From Candidatus Babeliales bacterium (GTDB taxonomy: Bacteria; Babelota; Babeliae; Babelales; JBFXEV01), in assembly GCA_050179755.1 (NCBI GenBank), contig JBFXEV010000001.1:677940-741939 (forward strand): a stretch of 64,000 nt of DNA, written 5' to 3'. The notes under the pieces were generated by a model. It was not told the DNA's origin and did not search any database. It saw only the letters and a program-made list of their open reading frames with translations. Of the stretch, positions 2,332 through 36,471 are shown in pieces; the first letter of the stretch is position 1, and each line of letters opens with the position of its first letter. The position numbers and the translations under genes are program-made.

Positions 2332-4029
2332 ATGATTAGTTCATTTAAGGACATTGCGCTTGCTGCCTCATTAAAAAGAGCTCTTGAAGAGCTTGGCTTT
2401 ACTACGCCAACTGAGATTCAAGCCAAAGCAATTCCTCAGCTCATTGATGCAAAAAATATAGATTTTCATGGCCAAGCCCAAACAGGTACGGGTAAAACAC
2501 TCGCGTTTGGCTTGCCATTACTGCATCACATTGACCCAACAAATAAGCAAGTACAGGCATTGATTGTAGCACCAACTCGTGAACTTGTAGTGCAAATTGC
2601 AGAAAGTTTACAGCAAGTTGCAAAATATAGTCAAATTAAAATCACCACAATCTATGGTGGTGTATCAATGCAAGATCAATTACACGTACTTAAAAATAAT
2701 GGCGTGCAAGTTGTTGTTGGCACTCCAGGTCGTCTTAATGATCATTTACGCAGAAAAACATTAAAGCTTAATGTACTTCAAACTATCGTGCTTGATGAAG
2801 CTGACATTATGCTTGATATGGGCTTTAAAGAAGAGATTGATGAAATCCTTAATAACTGTTCAAAAGAGCGTAACATCTGGTTATTCTCAGCAACGGTTAA
2901 AGGTGGTATTGAAGATCTTAAAAATTCACACATGCGCAATCCAATCTCAGTGCGTGTATCAAAGAGCGATGTTGGTAACAAACAAGTAAAACAATATTAT
3001 TGCATAGTGCCATCGCGCAATCGCCTTGCAGCACTTTCTCGTTTTATTGATAAATCACTTTCATTTTATGGTTTAATCTTCTGTCCAACCAAAATTTTGG
3101 CAGGCGAAGTTGCTGAAGTACTTCTTAAACGTGGCTATAAAGCAAGTGCGCTTCATGGTGATATGAACCAAGCGTCACGTAACCGTGTAATTAAGCGTTT
3201 TAAAGACAATCAAGTACAAATTCTTGTGGCTACTGACGTGGCAGCACGTGGTATTGACGTTGCAGATTTAACGCACGTTATAAACTATTGTATCCCTGAA
3301 GACCAAGAAAGCTATGTTCACCGTATTGGTAGAACGGGCCGTGCTGGTAAAGAAGGAACTGCGATCACCTTTATTAATCCGTCAGAAATTAGCCGTATCA
3401 AACGTTTACAACAACGCTTTGGCTTAGACATTAAACCTATTGATGTGCCGAGCATAGAAGACATCGCAGGGGTTCGCGTGCAAGAAGCTGCAGAATATGT
3501 GGCGCTTTCTTCTCATAAAGATAAACATTCTGGTGCGTACCTTGACACGTTGCGTGGCTTGGTAACAGAATATGAGCAAGCGGATCTTATTAACGTAGTA
3601 GTTAACAGCTTGCATGATCTATTCTTTAAGCATATTAAACAAGAAACAGATATTTCATTCACACCAGCAAGTAAGTTTAGTGATTTTGGTGACGAATCTG
3701 AATCACGTGGCCGTGGGCGCCGTGGTGATCGTAATGATCGTGGCGGTGAACGCCGTGATCGTGGGGATCGTGGGCCGTCTCGCCTTGCTGATGGTCATGA
3801 AGAACTTGCATTAAACGTTGGTTCTGATGATAAAATTACTAAAACTGATTTAGTTACGTTCTTGACTCAGAATGCAAAAGTTAATGGGCAAGATCTTGGT
3901 AAAATTAAATTGATCAAGCGTTGCAGCTTTATCAGTGTGCCGTCTCCAATAGTCAATCGAGTGATTCAATCACTTGATGGCAAAAAGTTCGGCGGCCGCC
4001 AAGTGCGAGTTCGTAGAACTGGAGAGTAA
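2332..4029 (+). CDS. deaD: DEAD-box ATP-dependent RNA helicase with C-terminal DbpA-type RNA-binding domain
   Basis: Motifs AQTGTGKT, PTRELV, VLDEADIMLDMGF (DEAD), SAT, HRIGRTGRAG. RG/RD-rich linker (RGRGRRGDRNDRGGERRDRGDRG). C-terminal ELALNVGSDDKITKTDLV...GGRQVRVRR. Confidence 0.93.
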   Translation: MISSFKDIALAASLKRALEELGFTTPTEIQAKAIPQLIDAKNIDFHGQAQTGTGKTLAFGLPLLHHIDPTNKQVQALIVAPTRELVVQIAESLQQVAKYSQIKITTIYGGVSMQDQLHVLKNNGVQVVVGTPGRLNDHLRRKTLKLNVLQTIVLDEADIMLDMGFKEEIDEILNNCSKERNIWLFSATVKGGIEDLKNSHMRNPISVRVSKSDVGNKQVKQYYCIVPSRNRLAALSRFIDKSLSFYGLIFCPTKILAGEVAEVLLKRGYKASALHGDMNQASRNRVIKRFKDNQVQILVATDVAARGIDVADLTHVINYCIPEDQESYVHRIGRTGRAGKEGTAITFINPSEISRIKRLQQRFGLDIKPIDVPSIEDIAGVRVQEAAEYVALSSHKDKHSGAYLDTLRGLVTEYEQADLINVVVNSLHDLFFKHIKQETDISFTPASKFSDFGDESESRGRGRRGDRNDRGGERRDRGDRGPSRLADGHEELALNVGSDDKITKTDLVTFLTQNAKVNGQDLGKIKLIKRCSFISVPSPIVNRVIQSLDGKKFGGRQVRVRRTGE

Positions 4030-4633: not shown

Positions 4634-6202
4634 ATGTTGAGCAAAAAATTAGTTCTGTTTTGTGCTTTTTTCTCTCTGGCCAATCTTATGGGCATGGAGC
4701 AAGTGACTATTCAAACGGAAGAAGGTCAAGAATTTATTGTAGACGCAGACCTTGCAAAGCTTTCGGAAACTTTAAAGAATTTAATAGAAGATGCAGGAGG
4801 GGATCTACTTGAGAACTCATTGCCATTGCCTAATATTACAGGGGCCACATGGGCGCAGATTCAAAATTTATTACCCGCTGTTCGCGATATTATAGATGGC
4901 ACTCAAGATGCTCAGCAAAAAAAAGATGGCATTATTGCCGCATTAAAACAACTTGATGGCACTAATCTCATAGCATTTATTATTGCAGTTAATTATTTGG
5001 ATATTCGTATTCTATTAGAGTTAGCAATTGATGTTGCAAAACAGATTGATGTTAAAAAGATAACTCCCGCACAAATTGCTGCACTACCCAAAGAAATTCG
5101 CAATCCTATTATATTTGCACAGACATTAAATATTTTGGGTCCATTGAGTGACAGCTCATTGCAGGTTAAGCAAACTGCCGGTAAACGTTCAGTATTTTCA
5201 GTGGATGTATCGCCTGACGGCAGCAAGATGGTCTCAGGATCTAATGATAGAACCGTACGTATATGGGATGTTAATAATTTTAACTTACTTAAAACATTTT
5301 ATACCGTAAATATGGTGAGAGCGGTTTGTGTAACACCAGATGGCCGTAAGCTTGTTACTGGTTCAGACGATGGCGTTGTCCGTCTACTTGATATCAATAC
5401 CGGTGGGCTCCATCGGGTGTTTATGGGGCATATATTTCCTGTGACATCAATCTCTATAACGCCAGATGGTAATCATATAGTTTCAGGTTCTGCTGATGGT
5501 ACAATTCGCATATGGGATATTATGACAGGTGAACTTGTTGCCGTGTTGCGAGATTCTGTAAGCAAAGCGATCAATGCAGTCTTTGTAACACCTAATGGTA
5601 AACATATAATTTCAGGGTCCGATGATTATTCAGTTGGCATATGGGATATTGGAACATATAAGCCATTAGTTAAGCTAATAGGGCATACCGGCCCAGTTAA
5701 GGGAGTGTGGGCAACGCCAGATGGTGCCTTTATTGTTTCAGGGTCATTGGATGGGACAGTTCGTATTTGGGATAGCAACACTCACCAACAATTATACGAG
5801 CTAAAAGCCGATGGTCCTGTGAATTCTGTTGTTGTAACGCAGGATGGCAGTAAAATACTCTCAAGCTCTCAGAATGGCATACAAGTATGGGATAGAAATA
5901 ATCGTGCGTTACTTGTACATTTTATTGTTTTTCCTCATATGATTCGGGTTACGCCCGATGGCAAAACTATTGTGGGTTCCAGTGGTAACTTGTTATTCAA
6001 ATTTGATATGTCAATTTTGGATCGCTTTCCTGCTATAACACTACAGCAGGCTGAGTTCATTTGGTCGTATTTACAAGGCAGTCATCGTGAAGACTGGAGC
6101 CCTATTTTAAACCTTCTGGCACTTAGGCCAACAATGTTACAAGGAGTAGCGGGTGTGCAGGAAGTGCAGCCGCCCACAAAACGCCGGCGGGGTGCTCAGT
6201 AA
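4634..6202 (+). CDS. Leader + SKP1-like (POZ) domain + WD40 propeller fusion protein, paralog 1
   Basis: AAGGAG at 4621-4626 sits 7 nt before ATG 4634; the track start 4628 is TTG. Leader is LSKKLVLFCAFFSLANLMG. SKP1-collinear block: MEQVTIQTEEGQEFIVDADLAKLSETLKNLIEDAG...LPLPNI...IIAVNYLDIRILLELAIDVAKQI. WD blades: GSNDRTVRIWDV, GSDDGVVRLLDI, GSADGTIRIWDI, GSDDYSVGIWDI, GSLDGTVRIWDS. Confidence 0.85.
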   Translation: MLSKKLVLFCAFFSLANLMGMEQVTIQTEEGQEFIVDADLAKLSETLKNLIEDAGGDLLENSLPLPNITGATWAQIQNLLPAVRDIIDGTQDAQQKKDGIIAALKQLDGTNLIAFIIAVNYLDIRILLELAIDVAKQIDVKKITPAQIAALPKEIRNPIIFAQTLNILGPLSDSSLQVKQTAGKRSVFSVDVSPDGSKMVSGSNDRTVRIWDVNNFNLLKTFYTVNMVRAVCVTPDGRKLVTGSDDGVVRLLDINTGGLHRVFMGHIFPVTSISITPDGNHIVSGSADGTIRIWDIMTGELVAVLRDSVSKAINAVFVTPNGKHIISGSDDYSVGIWDIGTYKPLVKLIGHTGPVKGVWATPDGAFIVSGSLDGTVRIWDSNTHQQLYELKADGPVNSVVVTQDGSKILSSSQNGIQVWDRNNRALLVHFIVFPHMIRVTPDGKTIVGSSGNLLFKFDMSILDRFPAITLQQAEFIWSYLQGSHREDWSPILNLLALRPTMLQGVAGVQEVQPPTKRRRGAQ

Positions 6203-6328: not shown

Positions 6329-7966
6329 ATGTTAAAGAAATTACTATTTTTTTCATTATTAACGGTCTCTTGCGCTTATGCCATGGAACCAGTGCCAGGT
6401 AAGCGGCAAAAACGTTATGATAATCCTCTAGAAGATGGTTCAAGTGAGGTTGACGCTTTGCCCAGATATTTATCAATTGAGCAGCCGGCATTCGTAAAAA
6501 GCGATGAGGACGTTGCTATTCAGACAGAGGATGACCAACACTTTATAGTTCCTATTCAACTTATTAAGTTATCTGAGACACTAAAAAATTTAATCGAAGA
6601 TGCTGGAATAGATCATCCAATTCCGCTACCTAATATTACTGCTTATACATGGCAGTTAACCCAATCATTGCTAGAGCGCGTGAGTGTTCTTTCGGGAAAT
6701 GATGCAGCCTTAGCGCCTCATGCAAAAAATTCTATTATAGCAACTTTACAAGATCTTAGATGCCAGGATCTTGTTGATTTTATTACAGCAGTTAATTACT
6801 TGGATATTCCAATTTTACTTAATATTGTGCTTGATGTTGTAAAGCAAGCAGATGTTTCTGTTATGACCCCGGAGCAGCTTATTCAGCTGCCAAAAGAAAT
6901 TGCCAATCCCATAGTTCTTGCGCATATTTTGCGGGCGTTAGCACCGTTACAAGGGCAGCAGCAACAAGTTATTAAGGGGTTTAAACGAGCGATTGCAGGA
7001 CTTTGTGTTAGTCCCAATGGTAACAAGATATATACCACGCATATCAATGGTATTGCGCGTATTTGGGATATGGCAACTGGTCAGCAGTTAAGTCAATTCG
7101 GGCATGCATCATGGGGGCGCCCAGGCTTGGGCTTATTGCCTGATGAAAGTGCTGCCCTATTAGGTTTTCATGCAAAGCCAATAATAATGTGGGATCTGGC
7201 AGCGAATAAGGTTTGTGAGAATGTTACCTTTGAGCGTCCTGATAATGCATTTTTAGGCGTACATACATTTCAAGTTACCCCTGATGGCACTAAAATTGTG
7301 TGCAAGGTGCACACGGGTTTCATCATTGTATGGGATCGTATCACTGGTAAAATTATTCATCGTATTTTAAGTGACGCAAGGCTTGTTTGTGTATCATCTG
7401 ATAGCAAGTATCTTGTTTTATGTGCGCTAAATGGTGCAATAACTCTACATGACATGGAATCAGGAGTACGCGTTGAGTCATTTCCTAAAATTGGAGATGG
7501 CAGTTGTGTTGATGGTGTTTTAATAACGCCAGATCAAAGCAAAATAATTCTAAATTATGCTGGTCGCGTATTATTTATAAAAGATTTTAAAACCGGTGCC
7601 GATCTTAACCGCATAGGCTATGATGAGCAAATTAGCGCAATATGCGTTACGCCAGATAGTTCTTATATATTGATTGGGCTTGTAAATGGTAACATACATA
7701 TGCATGAGCTTGCAACGGGTACATTAGTTGCCTGTTTTAAAGGTCATACAAAGGCAGTTTGTAATCTTAAAGTTGTGTCACAGGGTAGTCGTTTTGTTTC
7801 AGCATCTATGCTGGATAAGACCATGCGTATATGGAATCTAGATATATTTGCTCGCTTACGTGCATTATCTAAAGAGCAAGCAAAGTATATATGGACTTGC
7901 TTATATAAAAAAGAGATTGATAAGTGCCGTGTATATGTTCAAAATATTATAGTGCCACAAGACTAG
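6329..7966 (+). CDS. Leader + SKP1-like (POZ) domain + degenerate WD40 propeller fusion protein, paralog 2
   Basis: GGAG precedes the ATG. Leader is MLKKLLFFSLLTVSCAYA. SKP1-like block: VAIQTEDDQHFIVPIQLIKLSETLKNLIEDAG..PIPLPNI..ITAVNYLDIPILLNIVLDVVKQ. WD-like blades: GIARIWDM, PIIMWDL, GFIIVWDR, DKTMRIWNL. Confidence 0.82.
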   Translation: MLKKLLFFSLLTVSCAYAMEPVPGKRQKRYDNPLEDGSSEVDALPRYLSIEQPAFVKSDEDVAIQTEDDQHFIVPIQLIKLSETLKNLIEDAGIDHPIPLPNITAYTWQLTQSLLERVSVLSGNDAALAPHAKNSIIATLQDLRCQDLVDFITAVNYLDIPILLNIVLDVVKQADVSVMTPEQLIQLPKEIANPIVLAHILRALAPLQGQQQQVIKGFKRAIAGLCVSPNGNKIYTTHINGIARIWDMATGQQLSQFGHASWGRPGLGLLPDESAALLGFHAKPIIMWDLAANKVCENVTFERPDNAFLGVHTFQVTPDGTKIVCKVHTGFIIVWDRITGKIIHRILSDARLVCVSSDSKYLVLCALNGAITLHDMESGVRVESFPKIGDGSCVDGVLITPDQSKIILNYAGRVLFIKDFKTGADLNRIGYDEQISAICVTPDSSYILIGLVNGNIHMHELATGTLVACFKGHTKAVCNLKVVSQGSRFVSASMLDKTMRIWNLDIFARLRALSKEQAKYIWTCLYKKEIDKCRVYVQNIIVPQD

Positions 7967-7988: not shown

Positions 7989-9362
7989 TTATAATGCTTT
8001 TTCAATAATCTTAATCGAATCAGCAAATCCTTTTCTTAATCTTAATAAAAAAGACTTGCAATTTGAAAGTTCCGCAATAAGGTCTTGAATGCGCTCGTCT
8101 GTTAATCCAATCTTTTGCGCTTGTGCTTTGGTTAACCCATATTGATCGAGTGTGCCATCTAAAAATGCCTGAGCAATGCAGCGTGAGGGCACGGTTTGCA
8201 AGATATAGCTATATTGGCGCAATTGATAATAAAGATCACTTGCTAATGAACCGTTTTCATAGGCAACTTGTATTGCTCGCCACTGTGCTGCAAACTGTTC
8301 ATCCGTTACATCGTTTATTTTTAGATTTGTTCTTCCAAAAAAATCTGCCATAGTATTTTCTACTGATGCACTATACTGCCCCATTTTTGCATATGTTAAT
8401 AAAAATTCTTCAGTGAGCGTTAGGTCTTGCGTTAAAATACATTGTCTCAATGTTGCAAAGCAAATTTGATCTCGTTCAAGTGCTGTAATGTTGGATTCAA
8501 CTTCTTTATGTAGTGCAACTAATTGTGCGTGTAATTGCACGAGAAGCTCATTAGTTTTTTCATCTTCTTTAGTAATTCTTTTAAGAAGTTCTTTGCCGTG
8601 TGTTAATGCTTTTTCATACTTCCTATGATTCAATTCTTCTGGATTTGATTCTTGCAGAGGTTCTTGCATTTCAATTTTTTCTACTGCTTCAATCACTGGC
8701 ACTGATTCTGATGTTTGAGTTTGCTGCGTAGCAGCAATAATACTTTTAAATGGGGCAAATGAACCCCTTATTTTCTGTGCAAGAAACCGCCAAGCAGTTG
8801 ATACTGGTGTTGCTGTTTGTTCAAGTGTGGAGTGCTTAGATGATTGCTGCTCGGCTGCAGGTATTAATGAAACTGCGCTTGCATTATCAAGTGTGGCTAT
8901 ATACGTAATTTCACTTGGCGCTTCTTGCTGTTCTTGAGTTTTTTGCATTGTGTGAGCATCATAATCATCAACAATAAGGAGCAGTGGTTTTGGGCTATCT
9001 GCAAGATCTAACGTTCTTAACAACGCATCTATGGGTGATGCTTCATGTAAGCGCACAACAAATTCAGCAGGAGCTGCTCTATTAAATGGTAATTTGCAGT
9101 GATTAAAGAGTAATTCAATTTGGCCATGAATAGTGCGCGTGCAGGTGTTTGCTGCTTTGCATAATTTTTGTAAATCGCTTAGTGCTGGCCGTTCCGCATG
9201 CATGGATTTGCCAGCGGTATTAATGATTATCCAGCTTTTTCCCATTAGATTATCATCAGCATCTGGTTCCATGCAAAAAGTATTGGTTGTGATAACGCAT
9301 ATGATGATAAATACAATCTTTTTGCTAGTTGGCATTATATGACCAGCGTTATGATCTAACAT
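7989..9362 (-). CDS. Hypothetical leader-bearing protein, helical/coiled-coil rich
   Basis: 457-codon ORF with AAAGGA upstream of ATG 9362. Hydrophobic segment KKIVFIIICVITTNTFC is followed by MEPDADD. No recognisable domain. Confidence 0.6.
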   Translation of the reverse strand: MLDHNAGHIMPTSKKIVFIIICVITTNTFCMEPDADDNLMGKSWIIINTAGKSMHAERPALSDLQKLCKAANTCTRTIHGQIELLFNHCKLPFNRAAPAEFVVRLHEASPIDALLRTLDLADSPKPLLLIVDDYDAHTMQKTQEQQEAPSEITYIATLDNASAVSLIPAAEQQSSKHSTLEQTATPVSTAWRFLAQKIRGSFAPFKSIIAATQQTQTSESVPVIEAVEKIEMQEPLQESNPEELNHRKYEKALTHGKELLKRITKEDEKTNELLVQLHAQLVALHKEVESNITALERDQICFATLRQCILTQDLTLTEEFLLTYAKMGQYSASVENTMADFFGRTNLKINDVTDEQFAAQWRAIQVAYENGSLASDLYYQLRQYSYILQTVPSRCIAQAFLDGTLDQYGLTKAQAQKIGLTDERIQDLIAELSNCKSFLLRLRKGFADSIKIIEKAL

Positions 9363-20541: not shown

Positions 20542-21537
20542 CTATTTTTCTTGTGTTACCAATTTTGCAGGCTTATCTCTACGTAATCCTTTATATGTTG
20601 GATGGCGTAACTTATTATATTTGGTCCATTCAGTAAAACCAACTTCACACACTAACTGTGGTTTTACCCAATGCACGCCTTTAAGTGAATCGTCAAAGTT
20701 TACAAATGGATTTTTGTTTGTGGCTAATTTATTAAATTTATTTGTAAGATAGAGAAGTTCTTCTGTATCAAAGCCGGTGCCAATTTTACCAGCATAGTGT
20801 AATTTGCCGCGTTTATAATAGCCCACTAAAATTGCACCAAATCCAACGCGAGATCGTTGCGGGTCCGTGTAGCCGCCAATCACTAATTCTTGTTCTTGCA
20901 CACATTTGAATTTAAGCCAATCGGTAGAACGTTTGCTTTGATAGGTACTATTTTTATATTTTACTACCAATCCCTCCCATCCTTTTTTGCAGATAGTTCT
21001 AAAATAAGAGGCGCTTGCTTTGAGTTTGTGTTGTGTGTAACGTAATGGTTTTTCAAAAGTCATTACCTTACGCAATATTTGCTTACGCGTGATCAGTGGT
21101 AATTGAGTAAGGTCGTAGCCATCAAGATACATGATATCAAAGATATAATAATACACGGGAACGCGTGTTTTGGTGGCGGCTTCTTTGGTGCGGGCGTGCA
21201 TGCGCTGTTGCAAACGCGAGAAGTCAGAAAGGCCGTTTTTAAAAGCTACAATTTCTCCATCAAGAATCACGTTTGCTGGTATTTGTGCGATGGCATCTTG
21301 CACATCAGGGTAACTAATATTCATTGATAGGTGATTGCGTGATTCAAGAGCAACTTTTTTGCCTTTTTTTATGGCAACGCAACGCTCGCCATCAAGTTTG
21401 TGTTCGTAAAGCCAATCTGAGTCATAGAAGTAATTGTGGGTTAATGTTGCAAGCATTAAATTAAACGTGGAGGGTTGTGCTTTTTTTTTGAGTAATTTTT
21501 TTTGTTCTGGTGGTAAGTTTTCTAAAATGGGATTCAT
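20542..21537 (-). CDS. ATP-dependent DNA ligase (LigD/LigC-type ligase core: adenylation + OB)
   Basis: Motif I EHKLDGERC (catalytic Lys), then EGLVVK and WLKFK motifs. 331 aa. Confidence 0.85.
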   Translation of the reverse strand: MNPILENLPPEQKKLLKKKAQPSTFNLMLATLTHNYFYDSDWLYEHKLDGERCVAIKKGKKVALESRNHLSMNISYPDVQDAIAQIPANVILDGEIVAFKNGLSDFSRLQQRMHARTKEAATKTRVPVYYYIFDIMYLDGYDLTQLPLITRKQILRKVMTFEKPLRYTQHKLKASASYFRTICKKGWEGLVVKYKNSTYQSKRSTDWLKFKCVQEQELVIGGYTDPQRSRVGFGAILVGYYKRGKLHYAGKIGTGFDTEELLYLTNKFNKLATNKNPFVNFDDSLKGVHWVKPQLVCEVGFTEWTKYNKLRHPTYKGLRRDKPAKLVTQEK

Positions 21538-24665: not shown

Positions 24666-25172
24666 TCATTTGTTTTGTGCATTTAAGGTCGCAGCGAGAT
24701 GTGCTTTCAATAGAAAAGATAAAACTTGTTCGTGCCCAGGCAAACAAAAACCAACTGATCCATCTTCTTGAGGATATGCTAAATAACCCTTTTTTGCATA
24801 GTCTGCAATTAATTTTGGTGTACTGCATGTGGAAAATATAGCTGGTGGTTTTTCTCCTTTTGGTTGCGGGTTTTCTGTTTCATATTTAGCGCGTGCTTGT
24901 TTGAGAGTACTAATCAAATCTTCTCTTGATATTCCTTCTTGTCCACAATCAATAGTACCATGGCCGTACTCAACCACCTCTACTTTGGGAACTTCTTGAT
25001 TGCCACTTTCTTTACGTAACGTTTGCTCAAGACGCATTGCCATCATGCGTGCTTCAAAAGCTTGCTCTCGTTGTTCCTTTTCTTTTGCTGTTAATTCATT
25101 AGGTTTTTTCATTGCAAAGCTTGCGCTTTGTACTAAACATGCTGCTATTAAAAAAAAAAGTGCTTCATGCAT
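24666..25172 (-). CDS. Hypothetical secreted protein
   Basis: Leader MHEALFFLIAACLVQSASFA followed by MKKPNE. No known domain. Confidence 0.55.
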   Translation of the reverse strand: MHEALFFLIAACLVQSASFAMKKPNELTAKEKEQREQAFEARMMAMRLEQTLRKESGNQEVPKVEVVEYGHGTIDCGQEGISREDLISTLKQARAKYETENPQPKGEKPPAIFSTCSTPKLIADYAKKGYLAYPQEDGSVGFCLPGHEQVLSFLLKAHLAATLNAQNK

Positions 25173-25181: not shown

Positions 25182-25556
25182 TTACATTGAATCGCTATCG
25201 CTCGCGCATGGGCCTACTTCTACATGTCCCGTAGAGTTGTATCGGTTAGCTCTGGAAGCGGGTGCTGTTGCTTGCTCCATTCTAAATTGTAAAGCAAACT
25301 GTCTTTGTGTTGCATCCAGTGCTTCATAATCTTGAGCGGCAGCTTGTTCAGTTAATGTAAGTGCATGAGCGCCAGGTGCTCCACGCAATACTTGTACTTC
25401 TGTTTCCAAAGTAGCTATACGATCCTTAAGTGACCCAATAATTCGAACTTCTCTTTCCAAAACTACCACACGTTGCATTAATTTTCTTACATCATTGTCC
25501 ATGGTATAGCAATTGCTTATCATTAAAGACGCTGCAAAGAATGTATATTTTTTCAT
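25182..25556 (-). CDS. Small secreted coiled-coil protein
   Basis: Leader MKKYTFFAASLMISNCYT followed by MDND. Heptad-like VVLEREVRIIGSLKDRIATLETEVQVLRG. Confidence 0.55.
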   Translation of the reverse strand: MKKYTFFAASLMISNCYTMDNDVRKLMQRVVVLEREVRIIGSLKDRIATLETEVQVLRGAPGAHALTLTEQAAAQDYEALDATQRQFALQFRMEQATAPASRANRYNSTGHVEVGPCASDSDSM

Positions 25557-25660: not shown

Positions 25661-26677
25661 TTAGTCAAGCCGCGCGGTCTGCTCATGATATTTTGTTGCA
25701 TGGAATGTGCTTATTTGTGCATCTTTATAAAGTCGCTGCTCCATAAATTCAACAAGTTGATCATGATAGCGTGGGTCTCTCATGCCATTTGCAATAACTG
25801 CTTTCATCCACCCCAAAGGGTTACCAGTATCGTGCCGTTCACCTTGCACAATATACGCAATCACGCGCTCACCACTATTTTTAAGCATGTGAGCAATGGC
25901 ATCGGTTAATTGGAGTTCGTTTTTGGTAAGCATATTATGTGCTTGCAGATATTTAAGAGATTCATACACTTTTGGAGAAAGCACGTAACGGCCTACAATG
26001 GCTAGATTTGAAGGGGCTTTTTCTCGTGCCGGTTTTTCAACTAAATCATTTATTTCAAAGGTAAGTGGATCAATTTGTTTACTAAAACTTATTACACCAT
26101 AATTTTGCACCATGTGCATAGGTACTTCTTGTACGGCAATTACAGAGGCCTGTTCACGCTCTGCAATGCGCATAAGCTGACCTATAGCAGGATCATCTGC
26201 AAGATAAATATCATCAGGCAATATTACGCCAAAGTAATTGTTTCCTATTTCTGGTTCAGAAAGTAACACTGCGTGGCCAAGGCCTTTTGGTGCATCTTGC
26301 TCAACATAAGTAAATGAAAGATTGGCGAGCGCTTGCTCATGCGCTTCTACCATGTGATATTTGCCTAAAGGTTTTAAAAATTCAGATTTAAAAGGATCAA
26401 AATAATTTTTGAGTGCTTGTTTAAAATCGCTGCTTATCACCACAAGATCAGTAAGGCCTGAACCCTGGGCTTCTTCGGCAATAAAATGCATGGCGGGTTT
26501 TTCAGTAAGCGGGATCATTTCTTTGGGTATTGCTTTAGTGAGTGGTAAAAAGCGAGAACCTATTCCTGCTGCGGGAATGACTACTTTTTTTATGAATTTT
26601 GCTTCAATGCGTGGTGCTATAAACATTGCCACCCCAAGTACTATTACTCCATACTTTTTCATTTCATTCTCCTCCAT
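25661..26677 (-). CDS. galU: UTP-glucose-1-phosphate uridylyltransferase
   Basis: VIPAAGIGSRFLPLTKAIPKEMIPL, KGLGHAVL, VEKP. The N-terminus is uncertain; an internal ATG at 26626 would remove a hydrophobic 17-aa extension. Confidence 0.88.
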   Translation of the reverse strand: MEENEMKKYGVIVLGVAMFIAPRIEAKFIKKVVIPAAGIGSRFLPLTKAIPKEMIPLTEKPAMHFIAEEAQGSGLTDLVVISSDFKQALKNYFDPFKSEFLKPLGKYHMVEAHEQALANLSFTYVEQDAPKGLGHAVLLSEPEIGNNYFGVILPDDIYLADDPAIGQLMRIAEREQASVIAVQEVPMHMVQNYGVISFSKQIDPLTFEINDLVEKPAREKAPSNLAIVGRYVLSPKVYESLKYLQAHNMLTKNELQLTDAIAHMLKNSGERVIAYIVQGERHDTGNPLGWMKAVIANGMRDPRYHDQLVEFMEQRLYKDAQISTFHATKYHEQTARLD

Positions 26678-26688: not shown

Positions 26689-29406
26689 TTATCTTAATCT
26701 TTGTTCTAAATTTCTCAAATTAATCTGTAATTGTTGTAGGGAATTCACCAGCGTATTTTGAGGCTTAACTCCACTGAGAGGTGGGGTTTGAATACGAGGT
26801 TTGCTTTCTTTTTCTATAGTTTTTTGCCACGCCTCAAATTCTGTTTTAGTAAGCGTTGGTGTTGGAGTGGTAGTTTCGCTTGGATGTATAATGCTTATTA
26901 TTTTGCGTTCATCTGGGGTGAGTGAAGTAAGCCAGGCGGCAATACCTTGCGGATTGGTTTCTTGTAGCGTTTTATATTTTTGCAACACTGGTACCGCTTT
27001 TTCTTGTAGGAATGTTTGTATCTTCTTGCGCCCTGCAAGTTGTTCAGTACGCTTTACTGGAGGTTTGCTTGCGGTACTAAACAGTTTTTCAATCGTGTTT
27101 ATTAATTGACCAGCTTTAGGGTCGTTGGAAGAAAAAAAAGTAAGATTAGGAATGTTACCAGAGGATATGGTGTCAGTTGCTGGCCAGAGAGCCTGATGTG
27201 GTATATTTTGGCTTTTAAACGTATGGATAAAGAGCACAACGTTAACTTTTTTTGTAGAATCAGAGGTGAATAGTTTTGTATCGTTGTTTATAATAACTAC
27301 GTTATCAAGTGTAATTTCAAATCCCTTGAGATTTTTAATAAGTCCTTCATACTTTGGATTTTTATCAACTAAGCACGTGAGCCTTTTAATAAAAAATCGC
27401 TTAGTGAATTCTTGTTTTTGTATAGGCATGAATTTTTGCACAACTTCAGACAATGGTATCTTGGGTGCAGATATTTCTTCAAAGTAATGATCAGCATTAC
27501 CACCAATCATGGAAAGCACTGCAGGCATTCTATCTTTCATTATTTTTACTGGAACAGGAATATGCTCAGTGTAAAGTAGTAATGCATTTTGGCCTTGAAT
27601 GGTAAATGGTGTATTACTCGCAAGATGCGTTATCGCTGATTGCTCAGTAATTGTTGCAGTGAGTGGGCCAAGTTTTGAGCCAAATACTTTTGTTTTTGGC
27701 ATATCTACTACTCTAAACCATTCAGTATTTGGAAATCGAACCAACGGAATATTCTGCATTTTATCGAGAGTCCAAGGCGACTTGAACTTGTGGATATTGT
27801 TTAAGATATCTGCTAATGATGGTGTTGATTTGCCCGCTTGAAAGGCTTCCAACTCTGTAAAGTATTTAGTAAAATCTTGATTGAATTGAATTCTTAACTC
27901 AAGTGCAATTGCGGTTGGCGTGGCCGGTGACACGCCAATTTCTGGAATCTTGACGGTAGTTGGAGCATCAACACTTGCTCCCGAAACAAGAGTATAATTA
28001 TAGTTGAGGGGCATGTTCTCATATTGGTAGGGTGCTTCTAAGTTTTTACCACTACCAAAGCACGTATTATAAAAGAATAACCCAGTTTTTACGAAGCTAT
28101 TAAAAAAATTGAGCACTTCCTTAAAGTTATCTACAGATAATCCAGCAATTGATGCACCAGTATCACCAGTAGCTATTTTTTGTTTCAACTTATTAACTTG
28201 ATCTTGTAGTGCTTTTACAAGTTCTTGATAAGCGCTTACTGCCTTCTGAGAGCTTAGAATTGTAGCAAATATACTCTCCTTAGATTTAGCATAATATTTT
28301 TCTTGCGTGCTGCCAATTTTTGCTTCCCTCCATTTCTTTTCGATCGTTTCTTGTTCTTTTTGATATGTTGCTAATTGGTTTTGAGTTTCTTTTAATTTTT
28401 TTTTTGCTTGCGCAAGCTCTTGCTCATTTTGTGCAATTTTTTCTTGATAATATAATGTTCTATCCGGCCAGCCATGGCCAGTGGCATACACATTCCACAT
28501 CCCCAAATAATTTTCATGTGATTCAGGAGCTTTTATCTTGGAACTTGGTGCAATCAAGCCAAGATCTTGTCGCGTGACAAAGAGCTGCCTGAGGTCAATT
28601 TTTTCGCTTATGTTAGCTTGCTGGGCGCTGACTGATTCTTTTGGAGGGGTGAGAGGATCAGTTATTGTTGGCATATGATCTATTTTAAGGCCTAGGATAA
28701 GCTCACGATTAGATATGTTTTGGAATGAAGGCAGGTTATTGGTGTTTACCTGTTTGGTCACTTGTTGTTCATATGAGTTTGGCACTAAAAGATAGGCAAA
28801 ATTTGGGATGTGGCGTATTGTCCAATCTAAAGGATTGAAGCGAGTTGTATATGCTATAAAATCAAAATTGATTTCCTTTCTAATGGGGTGATCTTGTTGT
28901 AATTCTTTTTCATGAATAGCTATTGTTTTAAAGAAATCATTAAAATCGGTTGATGGTGGTTGGTTGCCAAACGTTTTGAGTGCTTGCTCGAAATACCCAT
29001 AATGGGCTGCATACAGTTGGTTCAGTTTGTTACGGAAGGTTAGAATATCTTTTCTGTAATCATACTGTGGCCCGATAATAGTGGTAGCATATTTTTTTAA
29101 TAAATCAGTTAATAAGTTGCCTCCTAATGGGCCGTTGTCTTTTAGTTGCTGATAGCGGTGACGCCTGGTTACAAAGTTATGCCAAAGTGATTCGGAAACG
29201 AGTAGAGGAGCTGCTTGTTGCTCAACCCCAGCAACAAGTTCAGACATAAGAGCAAAGCTTCCTGTTTGGGAGGTTTCTTGGCCGTGAGGATCAAAGAGGA
29301 TAAACAATCTGCGAGGTCCAAAAGTTCCTTCCATGGACCAACTGACTGATGCCCATGCAAGCTGTGATAGAGTGTAAAAAGCAATAACATATAACTTCAT
29401 TTCCAT
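26689..29406 (-). CDS. Very large secreted hypothetical protein (about 905 aa)
   Basis: AAAGGGAG lies 5 nt upstream of ATG 29406 (MEMKLYVIAFYTLSQLAWA). The track's earlier start is upstream of this Shine-Dalgarno sequence. Central coiled coil; see findings for an HG...C dyad. Confidence 0.65.
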   Translation of the reverse strand: MEMKLYVIAFYTLSQLAWASVSWSMEGTFGPRRLFILFDPHGQETSQTGSFALMSELVAGVEQQAAPLLVSESLWHNFVTRRHRYQQLKDNGPLGGNLLTDLLKKYATTIIGPQYDYRKDILTFRNKLNQLYAAHYGYFEQALKTFGNQPPSTDFNDFFKTIAIHEKELQQDHPIRKEINFDFIAYTTRFNPLDWTIRHIPNFAYLLVPNSYEQQVTKQVNTNNLPSFQNISNRELILGLKIDHMPTITDPLTPPKESVSAQQANISEKIDLRQLFVTRQDLGLIAPSSKIKAPESHENYLGMWNVYATGHGWPDRTLYYQEKIAQNEQELAQAKKKLKETQNQLATYQKEQETIEKKWREAKIGSTQEKYYAKSKESIFATILSSQKAVSAYQELVKALQDQVNKLKQKIATGDTGASIAGLSVDNFKEVLNFFNSFVKTGLFFYNTCFGSGKNLEAPYQYENMPLNYNYTLVSGASVDAPTTVKIPEIGVSPATPTAIALELRIQFNQDFTKYFTELEAFQAGKSTPSLADILNNIHKFKSPWTLDKMQNIPLVRFPNTEWFRVVDMPKTKVFGSKLGPLTATITEQSAITHLASNTPFTIQGQNALLLYTEHIPVPVKIMKDRMPAVLSMIGGNADHYFEEISAPKIPLSEVVQKFMPIQKQEFTKRFFIKRLTCLVDKNPKYEGLIKNLKGFEITLDNVVIINNDTKLFTSDSTKKVNVVLFIHTFKSQNIPHQALWPATDTISSGNIPNLTFFSSNDPKAGQLINTIEKLFSTASKPPVKRTEQLAGRKKIQTFLQEKAVPVLQKYKTLQETNPQGIAAWLTSLTPDERKIISIIHPSETTTPTPTLTKTEFEAWQKTIEKESKPRIQTPPLSGVKPQNTLVNSLQQLQINLRNLEQRLR

Positions 29407-29522: not shown

Positions 29523-31043
29523 TTATATCTTGTGGTTAAAAAAAATTGCTCCACCTTTTAACCGATATATAAACAGTTGATAAAAAAGAGTTAAGGGGTC
29601 TTGTTCGTCGGGATTTTCAGCAAGCACCGATGCAAGAGGCTTTATTACTTTGAGCATGATGTTTAAATTCCGAATGTATAAGTGGGGATCAACGAGTGCT
29701 TGCATGTGCGCTGACCGCTCTAAGGCCTGTGCCATTTGGAGTGGTGTTTGCCCTTGCTCTGTTGCGGTGCAGAGTAATCGAGTAATATTTTGCAAATGTT
29801 TTTTTGCATAGTGCCATGCAAGAATTTGTGCAATTTTTTGCTGTTCATCTGGGCCAAATGATGTAACAAACGTACGCGCAGTTGCAAAGTTCATAAGAGG
29901 AGCCAGATCTTCACTTACATCTACAGGTATATTATATACAAGTGGTCCATTCCAAAGGAGCGTCAGAAGATCTTGGCGTAATAATGTGCTCGCCGTAAGA
30001 TGTGTTTCTAAGAATTTTTGAATGCATAATGTTCTGAGTGTTGGCACGTTGCTTTGGTTTAATGCCTCTAGAATAGAATCAAGAATTGCGATAGGGTCTT
30101 CATGTACCGTAGCTTCTGCAGGAGGTTGATCGTTATTATTGTTATTAGCCGCTGCAGGTAATTGATTGTTATTGTTATTGACATCAAAAGGTACTTGATT
30201 GTTGTTATTATTAATATTTTCAATAAGCTGGGGCAAGGGCGGCGCCAGGGGCTCGGGTGGCGCAGGAATTGGAATAATGGGGTCTATGCAATATAAAAGC
30301 AATGCAAGCAAAGAATAGAGTTTATTATTATCTATGGCAGTATGCAGCGCGGTGTGTTTATTAACATCAGGGCCCACCCATGCGCGATGTTCAAGTAAAT
30401 GACCAATACAAAATGGATGTTCTTGTGTTATACCAAATACTATGGGAGGATAACGTTCTTTATTATAAGTATCAATATCAATTCCCGCTTGGTAAAGTAA
30501 CAGCAAAAGTAACTGGTCAAATCCTCCTTCAGCGGCAACATGTAGTGTTGAATTTTTTGTTCTTGGGTGCATGGCTTGGGGATTTATTCCTTGCAAGAGC
30601 AGACGTTGGACTTTAAGCATATTATTTTGCCGTACTGCCGAAAGCATGGCAAAAACTTCTGCTCGTTTTTGCGCTTCTGTTTTTAGGGGCGGTGGCGCTT
30701 CATAGTGCACATATTGCCGAGGGCGGGTGGATACCCGGAAAAATTCTTTTTGATGACGAGAAAGTGCTGTTTCTTTTTCTGCTGCAGGCTCAGGTTCTTG
30801 TTGTACTTCTTTTTTGGTTTTGCCTTGTGCAAAATTGGCAAAGTGCTGTGTAAGTGGCGAAGGGTTTTCTTGCTCTGGCGATGGTGTTCGCGAAGGAGCG
30901 CCTTTGCGCACTTTCCCTTCTTTAAATTTTTTAAAATGAGTAAAAAAATCTTCGTCAGGCGGCTTGGGAGGCTCCATTGCACGCATTATGTGAAAACTGG
31001 TAAATAAGAGAGTAAGAATAGAGGAGCGTACACGGTGTGCCAT
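29523..31043 (-). CDS. Ankyrin-repeat protein with leader and poly-Asn triple repeat
   Basis: AAGGAA precedes ATG 31043 (MAHRVRSSILTLLFTSFHIMRA). ANK units (NSTLHVAAEGGFDQLLLLLLYQAGIDID; HTALHTAIDNNKLYSLLALLL). NNNNNQVPFDVNNNNNQLPAAANNNNND. Confidence 0.75.
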   Translation of the reverse strand: MAHRVRSSILTLLFTSFHIMRAMEPPKPPDEDFFTHFKKFKEGKVRKGAPSRTPSPEQENPSPLTQHFANFAQGKTKKEVQQEPEPAAEKETALSRHQKEFFRVSTRPRQYVHYEAPPPLKTEAQKRAEVFAMLSAVRQNNMLKVQRLLLQGINPQAMHPRTKNSTLHVAAEGGFDQLLLLLLYQAGIDIDTYNKERYPPIVFGITQEHPFCIGHLLEHRAWVGPDVNKHTALHTAIDNNKLYSLLALLLYCIDPIIPIPAPPEPLAPPLPQLIENINNNNNQVPFDVNNNNNQLPAAANNNNNDQPPAEATVHEDPIAILDSILEALNQSNVPTLRTLCIQKFLETHLTASTLLRQDLLTLLWNGPLVYNIPVDVSEDLAPLMNFATARTFVTSFGPDEQQKIAQILAWHYAKKHLQNITRLLCTATEQGQTPLQMAQALERSAHMQALVDPHLYIRNLNIMLKVIKPLASVLAENPDEQDPLTLFYQLFIYRLKGGAIFFNHKI

Positions 31044-31317: not shown

Positions 31318-33765
31318 ATGAGTTACGACGTAAGCAGTATAGAAAAAAAATGGCAGCAACGGTGGCAAGAAGATCCTTATTGGTATGCAAAACCAGCAGG
31401 ATCAGGTAAAAAATACTATTGCTTGGATATGTTTCCGTATCCTTCGGGTTCGGGGCTGCACGTAGGCCATTGGCGCGGGTATGTACTTTCTGATGTGTAT
31501 GCTCGTATTAAAATGCTCGAGGGTTACAACGTGCTCCATCCTATGGGGTGGGATGCTTTTGGTTTGCCTGCAGAAAATGATGCTATAAAAAAAGGCATAC
31601 ACCCTAAAGAGGGTACCTATAAAAATATAAGCAATTTTAAAAAACAGCTAACGCAAATTGCTGCTATTTATGATTGGTCAAAAGAATTAAGCACTACTGA
31701 TCCAGAGTATTATAAATGGACGCAGTGGATTTTTTTGAAAATGTATGAGGCGGGTCTTGCCTACCAAGACAATATGCCTATTAATTGGTGCACGTCATGT
31801 TTGACTGGTCTTGCCAATGAAGAAGTGGTTGATGGCCATTGTGAACGGTGCGGTTCACACGTGATACAAAAAGAGGTGCGTCAATGGGTGTTACGCATTA
31901 CTGAATATGCAGAAAAATTACTTACTGGTCTTGATACGTTATCGTGGCCTGAAAAAGTAAAAACAATGCAGCGCAACTGGATTGGCAAATCTGAAGGTGT
32001 TGAAATTCATTTTACTGCAGAAGATGTTCATGGTAACACGTACTTGGTGCCGGTATATACTACGTGCCCAGAAACTATTTTTGGAGTTACCTTTTTGACC
32101 ATGGCACCTGATCACGAGCTTGTTGAAAAGTTAGTTGATCCTGCACATCAAGCAGCAGTAAATTCATATCAAGAAATTGTTTCTGGCATGTCACCATTTT
32201 CGCGTGAAACAGGCAAAGATAAAACGGGTGCGTTTATTGGTGCGTATGCAATCAATCCGTTAACGCACGAAAAATTACCTATTTTTATTTCAAGCTATGT
32301 TTTAAAAGAATATGGCACTGGTGTGGTGATGGGTGTTCCTGCGCATGACGAACGTGATTTTGATTTTGCACGAGAATATGATTTGCCAATTACACAAGTG
32401 ATTTCATCACCATTGGTGCAGTATGATGATGCAGGTGATTTGGCAGCATGTTATCCTGGTGATGGTGTGCTTATTAATTCTGGATGGTACTCAGATTTAC
32501 CTGCAAAAACAGAAGGCCGTGCAAAAATTAGCGCAGATTTAATTGCGCGTAATAGTGCATTTAAAAGAACGCACTACAAATTACGAGATTGGATTTTTTC
32601 CCGTCAACGCTATTGGGGAGAGCCTATACCGCTTCTACATTGTATGCGCTGTGGCGTGGTGCCGGTTCCTGAATCTGAATTACCGGTCAGGCTTCCAGAG
32701 GTTAAAGAATATCACCCTACAGGCACTGGTGAATCGCCACTTGCAGCAATTGAACATTGGGTAAACACCAAATGTCCTTCATGCGGTGGGCCTGCCAAAC
32801 GAGAAACAAATACTATGCCACAATGGGCAGGTTCGTGTTGGTATTATTTGCGTTATCCAAATCCAACATTAACTGATAAACCATTTGACACACAAGATAT
32901 GAACTATTGGTTACCGGTCGATTTATATGTGGGTGGTGTGGAGCATGCTATTTTACATTTACTTTATGCGCGTTTTTATACTAAAGTATTGTATGATTTA
33001 GGCTATTTGCCATTTAATGAACCGTTTAAACAATTGTTTAATCAAGGAATGGTTAATAAATTTTCTGAAATTTCTGGTGCTGTTGAAAAAATGTCTAAAT
33101 CAAAAGGTAACGTAGTTAATCCTGATGACATGGTGGCACAGTATGGTTCTGATGCATTACGCACGTATATCTTATTTATGGGGCCGCCTGAGCTTGATTG
33201 TGAATGGCAAGATACTGGTCTTGAAGGCGTTAAAAGATTTTTGCAGAAAGTTTGGAATTATTCGGTTGATAAAAGTACGTTACTTTTATCCAATGAAATG
33301 GAAGATTTACAAGTTACTAAACGCGTGCATCGATTTTTAAAAGAATATCAAGAACGCATTGCGCATTTTAAGCCAAACACGGCAGTTCCTGCTGCAATGG
33401 AATTATTTAACGATTTAACTAAACAAAAAGCACGCTTATCGCGCGATAGAATGGAAAAAATACTTGTCTCGCTTTCAGTGATGGTGCCACATATGGCAAG
33501 TGAATTGTTAGAAGTTGTTTTGCAAAAACGCTTACAAGATTGTGTATGGCCAACGTATGATCAAAAATTAGCGCAGCAAGATGAAGTAACCATGGCAGTG
33601 CAAGTTGATGGCAAAACGCGTGCAACGATTGTGGTAAGCCAAAATGTTACTAAAGATAGTGCTGTTGACCAAGCGCGTGATGCTGCAAGCAAATGGCTTG
33701 AGGGCCAGGTGGTTGATAAAGTGATTTTTGTGCCGGGCCGCATGATTAATTTTGTGATCAAGTGA
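31318..33765 (+). CDS. leuS: Leucyl-tRNA synthetase
   Basis: HIGH motif ([10 protein letters not shown]), KMSKS (EKMSKSKGN), CP1 editing-domain insertion, 815 aa. Confidence 0.95.
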
Positions 33766-34943: not shown

Positions 34944-35816
34944 ATGGAAAGAAAGGTAGGAAAGCACATAATCACCACCACCAATGAAGATGTAATTTGG
35001 TTTCCAAAATCAAAGATAACCAAGGGTGACGTGCTTAATTATTATGAAAAAATTGCACCAATTATGGTGCCACACATGTATGGTCATCCGGTAACAATGC
35101 TTCGGTATGTCGATGGCATACAAGGTGAAGGGTTTTATCACAAAGATGCGCCAACGTATTTTCCAAAATGGATCAAGCGATGTAATGTTGCAAAAAAAGA
35201 AGATGGCACAACAAGTTATGTGTTGTGTAATGAACCCGCAACGTTAGTTTATTTGGCACAACAAGCATGCCTTGTGCCACATCTCTGGCTGAGTAAATGT
35301 GATAAGCTTAATTCTCCTGATCTTTTAATTTTTGATTTAGATCCGGCAAAACAACCATTTTCATTTATTTGTGATGTTGCGTTACGATTAAAAGAAATCT
35401 TAGAAGCGAATAATTTGGTGCCATTTATAAAACTTACTGGCTCCCGCGGTTTACATGTTACCGTACCCATAAAACGTTTGTATACGTTTGATTTTGTTCG
35501 TGATTTTGCAAAGGAAGTTGGCCAAATTTTGGTTGAAGATGATCCTAAAAATCTTACCATGGAAATCAGAAAAGAAAAAAGAAAAGGGCGGTTATTTATT
35601 GATATTAATCGTAATGGATTTACCGCAACAGCTGTGGCGCCATATGCCATTCGTGCATATGAAAAGGCGCCGGTTGCAGCACCATTACTTTGGGATGAAG
35701 TGAAGAAAAAAGGTTTGACCGCTCAAAAATATAACATCTCAAATATATTCAAGCGGTTGTCGCGTATCGGCGATCCATGGCATGATATACAAAAGCATGC
35801 TACAAAGTTGCCGTAG
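34944..35816 (+). CDS. Stand-alone LigD-type polymerase/primase (PrimPol) domain protein
   Basis: ITKGDVLNYYEKIAPIMVPHMYGHPVTMLRYVDGIQGEGFYHKDAP, LIFDLDP, TGSRGLHV, AVAPYAIR. GGAGAG precedes the ATG. Confidence 0.85.
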   Translation: MERKVGKHIITTTNEDVIWFPKSKITKGDVLNYYEKIAPIMVPHMYGHPVTMLRYVDGIQGEGFYHKDAPTYFPKWIKRCNVAKKEDGTTSYVLCNEPATLVYLAQQACLVPHLWLSKCDKLNSPDLLIFDLDPAKQPFSFICDVALRLKEILEANNLVPFIKLTGSRGLHVTVPIKRLYTFDFVRDFAKEVGQILVEDDPKNLTMEIRKEKRKGRLFIDINRNGFTATAVAPYAIRAYEKAPVAAPLLWDEVKKKGLTAQKYNISNIFKRLSRIGDPWHDIQKHATKLP

Positions 35817-35885
35817 AATATCTGTTGTTATTATATAAATATGGTATACTTTAAAATATATGATTTAGCTGTCCAGGAGGCCCTT

Positions 35886-36098
35886 ATGAAACTACCATTA
35901 CCAGATTTAGTTCCTCAATATATCGTTGACAAGTCAGGCAAAAAAACTAGTGTTGTTATTGATATAGCAAGATTTGAGCATTTTTTAGATGAAGTTGAAG
36001 ATATGTATCTTGCTCTTCTTGCCAAAAAAACTCTTGAAGAAGATGACGAGTATGTTTCACATGAGGATGTGCGGCGCATGAGCGGAGATAAAGAGTAA
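35886..36098 (+). CDS. Phd/YefM-like type II antitoxin
   Basis: AGGAGG lies 5 nt before ATG 35886. QYIVDKSGKKTSVVIDIARFEHFLDEVEDMYLALLAKK. Ends 4 nt before the toxin gene. Confidence 0.75.
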   Translation: MKLPLPDLVPQYIVDKSGKKTSVVIDIARFEHFLDEVEDMYLALLAKKTLEEDDEYVSHEDVRRMSGDKE

Positions 36099-36102
36099 TT
36101 TC

Positions 36103-36375
36103 ATGCAGCATGCTAAAATGAAAAAAGTTATTTGGCGAGCAAAGGCTTCAAAGCAATTTTTGAAATTACCTCGTTATGATCGTGATGCAGTTATTGGAAA
36201 GATAGATCTCCTTGCTTCAGGCGCACTTAATTTAGACATTAAGAAGCTGAAGGGTTACGACTTTTATAGGCTACGAGTTGGTACTTACCGAGTTATATAT
36301 CAACTCATTGATGGGGAGTTTTGCATCGTGATTATAGGCGTTGGGCATCGAAAACAAGTATACGATGATTTATAA
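36103..36375 (+). CDS. relE: RelE/ParE-family type II toxin
   Basis: YRLRVGTYRVIYQLIDGEFCIVIIGVGHRKQVY is the canonical RelE/StbE C-terminal block. Confidence 0.85.
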   Translation: MQHAKMKKVIWRAKASKQFLKLPRYDRDAVIGKIDLLASGALNLDIKKLKGYDFYRLRVGTYRVIYQLIDGEFCIVIIGVGHRKQVYDDL

Positions 36376-36471
36376 TTTTTTATTGATTTTCTTACGTTCA
36401 AACTCATAAAATCTACATCAACCCACTCACATTTTTGTATAACTAGATGTAAGTGGGTTGATAAAAAATCC

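Follow-up and report, generated by a model that had tools for sequence, protein, structure and literature searches.

A conserved methionine-acidic junction behind the leaders of eukaryote-like secreted proteins in Babeliales and its possible host-directed role

Dependentiae (TM6) are widespread parasites of protists, and to our knowledge no system for the injection or delivery of effectors has been recognized in them. Here we describe a recurrent arrangement at the N-termini of predicted secreted proteins encoded on 64,000 nucleotides from a Candidatus Babeliales bacterium (assembly GCA_050179755.1, contig JBFXEV010000001.1, positions 677,940 to 741,939 of the forward strand; this whole stretch is called the window, and coordinates refer to it unless another locus is named). 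In these proteins a hydrophobic leader is followed immediately by methionine and, usually, by glutamate or aspartate. The window has a G+C content of about 38%, and its gene for leucyl-tRNA synthetase (LeuRS, 31318-33765) shares 82% identity with that of the complete Candidatus Babeliales metagenome-assembled genome (MAG) chromosome OY970310.1 (locus L001 in our comparisons) and 57-66% with about twenty further Babeliales/TM6 MAGs. Leader-like N-termini were returned by a crude filter for 34 of the 61 open reading frames (ORFs), that is, for over half of them (about 34-35 in the window), which agrees with the published figures for Chromulinavorax destructans, where signal peptides are found on 44% of the coding sequences and on 78% of the ankyrin proteins and where Sec is the sole export route identified (PMC6561590).

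Ten of these leader-like N-termini have methionine at the junction. Nine had been listed in an earlier note made by reading the sequence, and when re-read each lay exactly where it had been placed; the tenth, NNLLA/MKIS, was added here (the slash marks the junction throughout). Two of the ten proteins are of the SKP1-WD40 type, two are ankyrin-type proteins and six are without Pfam assignment. SKP1-WD40 paralogue 1 (4634-6202, forward strand) has the ribosome-binding motif AAGGAG 7 nucleotides upstream of position 4634; its leader comprises codons 1-20 (4634-4693) and ends in ANLMG/MEQV, the junction ATG-GAG (Met21-Glu22) lying at 4694-4699 on the same strand. Paralogue 2 (P0017; 6329-7966, forward strand) has its leader at 6329-6382 and reads SCAYA/MEPV from 6383, with Met-Glu (ME) 43 residues upstream of the SKP1 domain. 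The tenth junction, with its ATG at 18417, belongs to an ankyrin-like protein of 281 amino acids (18351-19196, forward strand) whose gene is preceded by an AAGGAGG motif, while the second ankyrin-type protein, with ankyrin repeats and 506 amino acids (29523-31043, reverse strand), starts with the ATG at 31043 and reads HIMRA/MEPP at 30977-30975. The latter gene also contains an asparagine-run low-complexity tract, NINNNNNQVPFDVNNNNNQLPAAANNNNNDQPP, at about 30100-30250, which is reminiscent of amoebal (Dictyostelium-type) proteins. The remaining six include five proteins of unassigned function: one of 457 amino acids (7989-9362, reverse strand; NTFC/MEPD at 9272-9270), the leader of which probably starts at ATG 9335 (MPTSKK...), one of 168 amino acids (24666-25172, reverse strand; SASFA/MKKP at 25112-25110), one of 124 amino acids that is coiled-coil in appearance (25182-25556, reverse strand; NCYT/MDND at 25502-25500), one of 905 amino acids (26689-29406, reverse strand, start ATG 29406; VSWS/MEGT at 29334-29332) and one that runs off the end of the window (63300-64000, forward strand; leader 63300-63359, SVVT/MDQS at 63360). 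The sixth is a 197-amino-acid member of a family of small secreted paralogues (47111-47704, reverse strand; FSFA/MNLD at 47641-47639).

The ten leaders have the basic n-region and the hydrophobic core of the Sec/signal peptidase I type, with about 7-15 uncharged residues in the core and its location inside the first ~30 residues of the protein as the criteria. Lysine or arginine is present in the n-region of nine of them, the exception being the protein starting at 25172 (MHEALFF), and Shine-Dalgarno (SD)-like motifs are found 3-12 nucleotides upstream of nine of the ten leader ATGs and of none of the ten junction ATGs. The residues directly before the junction methionine (position -1) are, in the order of the genes, G, A, C, A, A, T, S, A, A and T; among 57 SKP1-like proteins, 47 have A, G, C or S at this position, and position -3 is A, L, V or I. 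Residues of this kind fit the rule for signal peptidase I, so that cleavage directly before the methionine is the natural reading, and we infer from the sequences that the mature proteins start precisely there with Met-Glu or Met-Asp. Other assignments were considered and rejected. A lipoprotein signal for signal peptidase II is at odds with methionine at +1, and any cysteine stands at -1 (NTFC/ME) and lacks an L-[AS]-[GA] context; a twin-arginine translocation (Tat) signal is at odds with the absence of RR from all ten leaders, and a type IV pilin-like signal with a hydrophobic stretch that precedes the methionine and a hydrophilic sequence that follows it. Finally, the resemblance of gccATGG to a Kozak context is a by-product of coding, since the purine at -3 comes from the Ala, Gly or Thr codons at residue -1 and the G at +4 from the Asp or Glu codons.

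Because a rule-based -3/-1 site picker proved too ambiguous to assign position +1, methionine enrichment was assessed with a statistic that is free of cleavage prediction, namely the residue just before the first charged residue that follows the N-terminal uncharged hydrophobic stretch. The census covered the window, 22 other Babeliales loci and, as controls, 56 loci from other phyla; the Babeliales DNA amounted to about 0.5 Mb, and some of the matches are orthologous to each other. A scan of metagenomes yielded 11 short loci only, too few for a second census. Methionine occupied the census position in 7 of 34 window leaders as compared to a methionine background of 1.8% (binomial p = 1.8e-6) and in 15 of 199 leaders from the other Babeliales loci (p = 1.4e-5). 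The non-Babeliales loci gave 6 of 211 (p = 0.28), and matches among them are visibly miscalled starts, such as a real LeuRS start behind a chance open frame. The excess is sharply positioned: in 235 Babeliales leaders methionine was counted 23 times at the census offset and 4-9 times at each neighbouring offset, and no such spike appeared at any offset in the control genomes. Scored with a relaxed filter, methionine followed by Asp or Glu (M[DE]) was present in 13 of 200 leaders from the Babeliales loci versus 1 of 234 in the controls (Fisher p = 4e-4). Within the loci covered, an excess of methionine over background, which the earlier note had proposed to look for genome-wide, is found at the census position in Babeliales and is missing from the controls.

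The junction is also selective with regard to the proteins that carry it. Outside the window, three of the eight junction-methionine proteins are ankyrin proteins, one is a GNAT protein and the rest are of unknown type. Leader-bearing window proteins that do not have it include a GH1 protein, a HAD hydrolase, an esterase and a nucleoside triphosphate (NTP) transferase. A search with a Babeliales ankyrin query returned mostly generic ankyrin proteins and served only as a control set; a leader followed by ME was seen in 5 of 52 leader-bearing matches, among them the four closest relatives of the query, and a junction methionine in none of the remaining 47. Leader-bearing SKP1-like relatives of higher G+C content (L082, P0070, P0079) read FA/DQV and lack the methionine. 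All in all, we have little doubt that the junction is a real, conserved and lineage-specific motif. A full-text search of the literature returned reports of the high signal peptide content of Dependentiae and no mention of methionine at +1 or of a methionine-acidic junction.

Conservation was studied on the 150 best SKP1-like representatives, chosen to be less than 50% identical to one another, 73 of which bear a leader and were aligned with MAFFT. Methionine fills the junction column in 59 of these 73 (81%). When the columns of the first 300 residues are ranked by conservation, this one comes 11th and so matches the core of the SKP1 fold with its PLP and NYLDI motifs. The next residue is E or D in about 47 cases and Q or N in 5, and position +3 is highly variable. 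The distance between ME and the SKP1 domain ranges from 0 (paralogue 1, P0013, P0051/52) to more than 100 residues (P0018) and is at least 10 in paralogue 2 and in most members, so that ME goes with the leader and not with the domain. P0014 even contains, behind an additional leader with its own MD junction, an internal MEQDAKRAKR that is homologous to the N-terminus of mature P0019. The preference for acidic residues is particular to the junction-methionine class: of the first charged residues after a junction methionine, 18 are acidic and 5 basic, whereas leaderless Babeliales proteins with a charged second residue have 9 acidic and 28 basic ones (p = 8e-8). A generic Sec constraint against basic residues behind the cleavage site was rejected as the cause, since behind the leaders of the same genomes that lack the methionine the charged residue is acidic 112 times and basic 100 times; an unfiltered sample of old starts does not account for the bias either. 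The orthologues in L001 retain the methionine despite diverged leaders, as seen for the 905-amino-acid protein (TLWT/MEAA), two tandem orthologues of the 506-amino-acid ankyrin protein (ALHP/MDND each), the 168-amino-acid protein (HGLA/MKPT) and an ankyrin-like relative of the protein at 18351 (MHG/MLPS). From this conservation we infer that selection keeps the junction in place.

In the SKP1 family the likely origin of the arrangement can be traced. The SKP1 BTB/POZ domain of paralogue 2 is matched by PF03931, and a phmmer comparison of paralogue 1 with SKP1 chains in the PDB gave an E-value of about 2e-9 over residues 21-148, Met21 being paired residue for residue with Met1 of human SKP1, just as the earlier note had stated. 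When the N-terminal 177 residues of paralogue 1 were used in an exhaustive HMMER search, 273 relatives were retrieved (a word-indexed search with the same 177 amino acids gave one match only), and these were accepted as leaderless only when in-frame stops were present upstream. The leaderless P0067, an SKP1-RCC1 fusion from locus L081 with in-frame stops just upstream, begins with MDNQVTLTSQDG, and the leaderless proteins of the metagenome loci L086 and L087 begin with MADDDQV(T/I)LQSQDG; the leader-bearing P0161 and P0162 read SLVG/MDDDQVILQSRDG. The N-termini of the leaderless proteins thus agree with the sequence that follows the leader in the leader-bearing MDDDQVILQS forms. Together with the alignment to SKP1 Met1, they indicate that at least one leader was added directly 5' of an existing initiator, and a graft of the leader onto an older start is in our judgement the probable origin in this family. 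P0068 and P0069 were not used as leaderless homologues, because they are JGI calls of genes that NCBI calls with a leader (P0161 and P0162). As to P0067 itself, its start has no preceding SD-like motif, and its gene has those for ubiquitin, a 2OG-Fe(II) oxygenase and an AAA ATPase as neighbours. The contig (L081, JAKOWA010000180.1 of GCA_029781815.1) is very rich in A+T and may belong to a giant virus or to a symbiont with a very high A+T content instead of Babeliales.

The explanation that we favour combines these elements. The hydrophobic N-termini would be genuine Sec leaders, cut by signal peptidase I directly before the methionine, and the junction would be specific to secreted eukaryote-like proteins of Babeliales, that is, SKP1-WD40 proteins, ankyrin proteins and unknowns restricted to the lineage. 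In the SKP1 family at least, the leader would have been added 5' of an existing start codon, with purifying selection acting ever since. The proteins would act in the cytosol or nucleus of the host and would need an N-terminus that resembles an ordinary eukaryotic one. Methionine followed by Asp, Glu, Asn or Gln constitutes the N-terminal acetyltransferase B (NatB) class of normal eukaryotic N-termini. Methionine with a non-hydrophobic residue of this type next to it would be stable under the N-degron rules of the host, whereas an exposed Asp, Glu, Lys or bulky residue would not. Taken as one compound statement, including the host-side reason, this account falls slightly short of an even chance in our estimation, and the requirement for a host-like N-terminus, considered separately, is a tentative and rather doubtful part of it. 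A selected Met-Asp/Glu N-terminus had been listed as an alternative in the earlier note; it fits the conservation observed, while the reason on the host side stays speculative. We nevertheless favour a reason of this kind because the proteins imitate host components, namely those of the SKP1-cullin-F-box (SCF) complex and ankyrin proteins, and because K[KR]x[KR] clusters stand directly behind ME in many of them (P0019, P0022, P0030, P0036, P0045 and P0014; e.g., MEGDAKKARVDD, MESDTKRAKTNE and MEQDAKRSKIHNPLED). The linker of paralogue 2 (6383-6511) likewise contains PGKRQKRY, which resembles a nuclear localization signal (NLS), and paralogue 1 has its basic cluster at the C-terminus instead (PPTKRRRGAQ, about 6160-6199). 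Such clusters, similar to monopartite NLSs, suggest targeting to the host nucleus. A precedent for the importance of the N-terminal residue is the Sec-secreted lethal factor of anthrax: the N-end rule governs its potency in the host cytosol, and methionine is the most stabilizing N-terminal residue (PMC2518864).

Several observations weigh against this account, or at least against parts of it. With regard to the cleavage site, the crude -3/-1 site picker is ambiguous and often chooses a site 2-5 residues upstream of the methionine, and the L001 ankyrin orthologues have proline at -1 (ALHP/MD), which is unfavourable for signal peptidase I, and still keep the methionine. With regard to the census, 2 of the 13 M[DE] matches in the loci are NusB false positives and 3 are L001 orthologues of window genes; the remaining eight represent new families in five other genomes (L003, L004, L005, L008 and L015). 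The junction at 47641 (MNLD) is a weak example, since the four window paralogues of the protein have leaders and no junction methionine, and three small leader proteins of one family at 51.9-53.9 kb (51932, 52751 and 53287), one of them with an ankyrin-like motif, have G/S junctions. The methionine is not strictly kept either: it gives way to A, S, G, I, L or F in a few of the SKP1-like proteins. Of ten N-termini of the 905-amino-acid family (the window protein and nine homologues), five have M at +1, two have I and one has T, while 2 shifted forms have no methionine; an acidic residue follows in all ten. Alanine, serine and glycine are stable under the classical N-end rule, too, and host stability alone therefore does not explain the preference for methionine. 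NatB acts co-translationally, and it is doubtful that it acetylates an imported protein. Finally, the account demands that the junction proteins pass two further barriers, the outer membrane and the host vacuole.

The first competing view holds that the old ATG and the acidic residue behind it were simply left by the addition of a 5' leader, have no function and are too recent to have decayed. The alignment of Met21 with SKP1 Met1 and the leaderless relatives that start at the same residue speak for this view, and the isoleucine or threonine in three of the ten N-termini of the 905-amino-acid family are single-base neighbours of ATG. In addition, short open upstream frames in an AT-rich genome would tend to set a leader flush against the old ATG. 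However, a methionine retained to the extent reported above among representatives so distant from one another, next to a highly variable +3, does not look like a decaying remnant, nor does the variable linker that separates ME from the start of SKP1 in most members. The acidic bias after the methionine is far above that of leaderless starts, and the same junction recurs in unrelated families (ankyrin proteins, the 905-amino-acid family and unknowns in the five genomes named above). A purely neutral relic is therefore an unlikely explanation. The 5' extension that the earlier note regarded as the simplest reading thus stands for the SKP1 family, but in view of the mobile ME, the conserved methionine and the acidic bias it is insufficient alone.

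Selection need not be exerted by the host, and a second possibility is that bacterial machinery reads the Met-acidic N-terminus as a sorting signal after Sec export and leaders have been removed, and then directs the proteins towards the host, either out of the periplasm or by way of vesicles. Acidic N-terminal export signals known from other systems would be an analogy. Such a signal would accord with a motif that is conserved, lineage-specific, confined to effector-like families and absent from the enzyme- and envelope-type leader proteins of the window, and also with the description of Dependentiae as having Sec only for export and no known effector route (PMC6561590). On the other hand, no candidate receptor or machinery was identified, two residues carry little information and the methionine is replaceable in some members. 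We regard such a signal as improbable when taken by itself, and yet it fits the data equally well as the host-N-terminus model, the two being inseparable here. When both are taken together, the broader proposal that the Met-Asp/Glu N-terminus is a host-directed mark of Dependentiae effectors acting in the host cytosol or nucleus, be it for the evasion of N-degron pathways or for recognition in onward export, is a possibility that we put forward with reserve.

Dual initiation, by which the junction ATG would serve as a second start, yield a leaderless cytosolic isoform and thereby be conserved, had also been raised in the earlier note and is the least supported of the live alternatives. The conserved codon is indeed ATG, it is sometimes called as the start (P0068 and P0069 by JGI versus P0161 and P0162 by NCBI), and U-rich leader-coding RNA could in principle support initiation that is independent of an SD sequence. 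Nevertheless, in the Babeliales M[DE] cases SD-like motifs precede 12 of 18 leader starts and not a single one of the 18 junction ATGs; the corresponding values are 56% for leader-gene starts in general and 7% for internal methionine codons picked at random, so that the junction ATG behaves as an internal codon. Where the methionine has been lost, it has been replaced by A, S, G, I, T or F; Leu was seen once and Val once or twice, whereas alternative GTG and TTG starts would have given mainly these two. Moreover, dual initiation offers no reason for an acidic second residue, and a copy of an SKP1, WD40 or ankyrin host mimic in the bacterial cytosol would be without obvious use, all of which renders the idea very unlikely. 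An annotation artefact, with the junction ATG as the true start and untranslated AT-rich DNA upstream that merely resembles a leader, is hardly credible: AT-rich DNA does translate into peptides rich in Phe, Ile, Leu and Lys, and most of the junction-methionine matches in the control genomes are miscalled starts of this sort, but in Babeliales the SD-like motifs stand before the leader ATG and not before the junction ATG, and the leader ORF, with its basic n-region, hydrophobic core and small residues at -1 and -3, is kept in the orthologues and in the 73 family members, from which we conclude that the leaders are translated.

Some further features of the window deserve mention. The GalU-like NTP transferase (25661-26677, reverse strand; in L001 at 2960-3901, reverse strand), an enzyme type that is normally cytosolic, has a conserved leader or anchor, MKKYGVIVLGVAMFIAPRIEA/KFIKK, without a junction methionine, and its Pfam domain extends from residue 32. 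Small secreted paralogues without Pfam match are densely arrayed at 38885-41591, 46486-49891, 51397-51903 and 53958-56006; one family is encoded at 39323, 40543, 47111, 47732 and 48523, a second at 38885, 40104, 41178, 49499, 53958 and 55638, and a third at 46486 and 51397, interleaved with genes for an 810-amino-acid protein with an esterase domain and a 595-amino-acid protein resembling an outer-membrane protein. At 12157-15794 (forward strand), the gene for a leader-bearing protein of 737 amino acids without Pfam match precedes those for two related proteins with helical repeats (14358-14810 and 14838-15794), a layout that looks like that of a toxin followed by immunity proteins. An ATP-dependent DNA ligase (20542-21537, reverse strand) and a separate protein with a LigD primase-polymerase domain (34944-35816, forward strand), encoded 13 kb apart, are parts of a repair system of the non-homologous end joining type in a reduced parasite genome. 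An antitoxin/RelE-like pair (35841-36375) lies near a ParB/CopG-like ORF (36472-36792) and a ParA-type ATPase (36874-37650), and the region 35841-37650 may be the remnant of a plasmid or another mobile element.

If the broader proposal of a host-directed mark is correct, the effectors of an entire phylum could be searched for by the simple rule of a leader followed by M[DE]. A conserved junction of this kind, concentrated in SKP1-WD40, ankyrin and orphan proteins, would also be a cheap marker that separates likely host-acting effectors from ordinary envelope proteins or secreted enzymes. It would provide a concrete hypothesis for how Sec-exported effectors become compatible with the host cytosol or are sorted onward, and it would document how a grafted leader can capture a start codon that then becomes a selected feature. 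There is also a practical side to this, as annotation pipelines disagree on the starts: the calls for P0068/P0161 and for P0069/P0162, each pair on the same contig, differ by 18-19 residues, one beginning at the junction methionine and the other at the leader, so that the same protein appears in databases as secreted and as cytosolic and leaders and predicted secretion are missed.

Comparison with known systems helps to define what is particular about the Babeliales junction. With the Sec/signal peptidase I leaders of Gram-negative bacteria the leaders share the basic n-region, a hydrophobic core about 10-15 residues long, small uncharged residues at -1 and -3 and an SD-like motif at the start, but the Babeliales subset differs by a conserved methionine at +1 and Asp or Glu at +2, whereas the 234 control leaders are at background and the 47 other ankyrin leaders are without the methionine. 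Bacterial lipoprotein sorting, as exemplified by Lol avoidance with Asp at +2 and by the lipoprotein export signal of Bacteroidota, also uses acidic residues behind the mature N-terminal residue to settle where a protein goes once Sec has exported it; these rules require a lipidated cysteine at +1, however, while the Babeliales junctions have methionine at this position and no lipobox. The Plasmodium and Toxoplasma export elements (PEXEL/TEXEL) of Apicomplexa are likewise effector-specific motifs adjacent to a leader, and position 2 of the resulting mature protein is acidic or polar, but PEXEL has the form RxLxE/Q/D and is cut by an aspartic protease in the eukaryotic endoplasmic reticulum and then acetylated, whereas Babeliales are bacteria with signal peptidase I; RxL is adjacent to the junction in none of the ten window examples, and the likeness is a functional analogy only. 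Closer to the proposed role are the Sec-secreted toxins that obey the N-end rule (anthrax lethal factor and edema factor, listeriolysin O), in which the residue left by leader removal sets the stability in the host cytosol; those experiments dealt with single toxins, while the Babeliales signature, known here at the level of sequence, is family- and lineage-wide. With regard to origin, the junction resembles other 5' extensions by which proteins have gained targeting signals, such as signal peptides and organelle presequences, in that the SKP1 junction methionine corresponds to the initiator of eukaryotic SKP1 and of the leaderless relatives. It differs from a simple extension that leaves a decaying relic in that even deeply diverged paralogues have retained the Met-acidic pair, which remains at the end of the leader despite long linkers.

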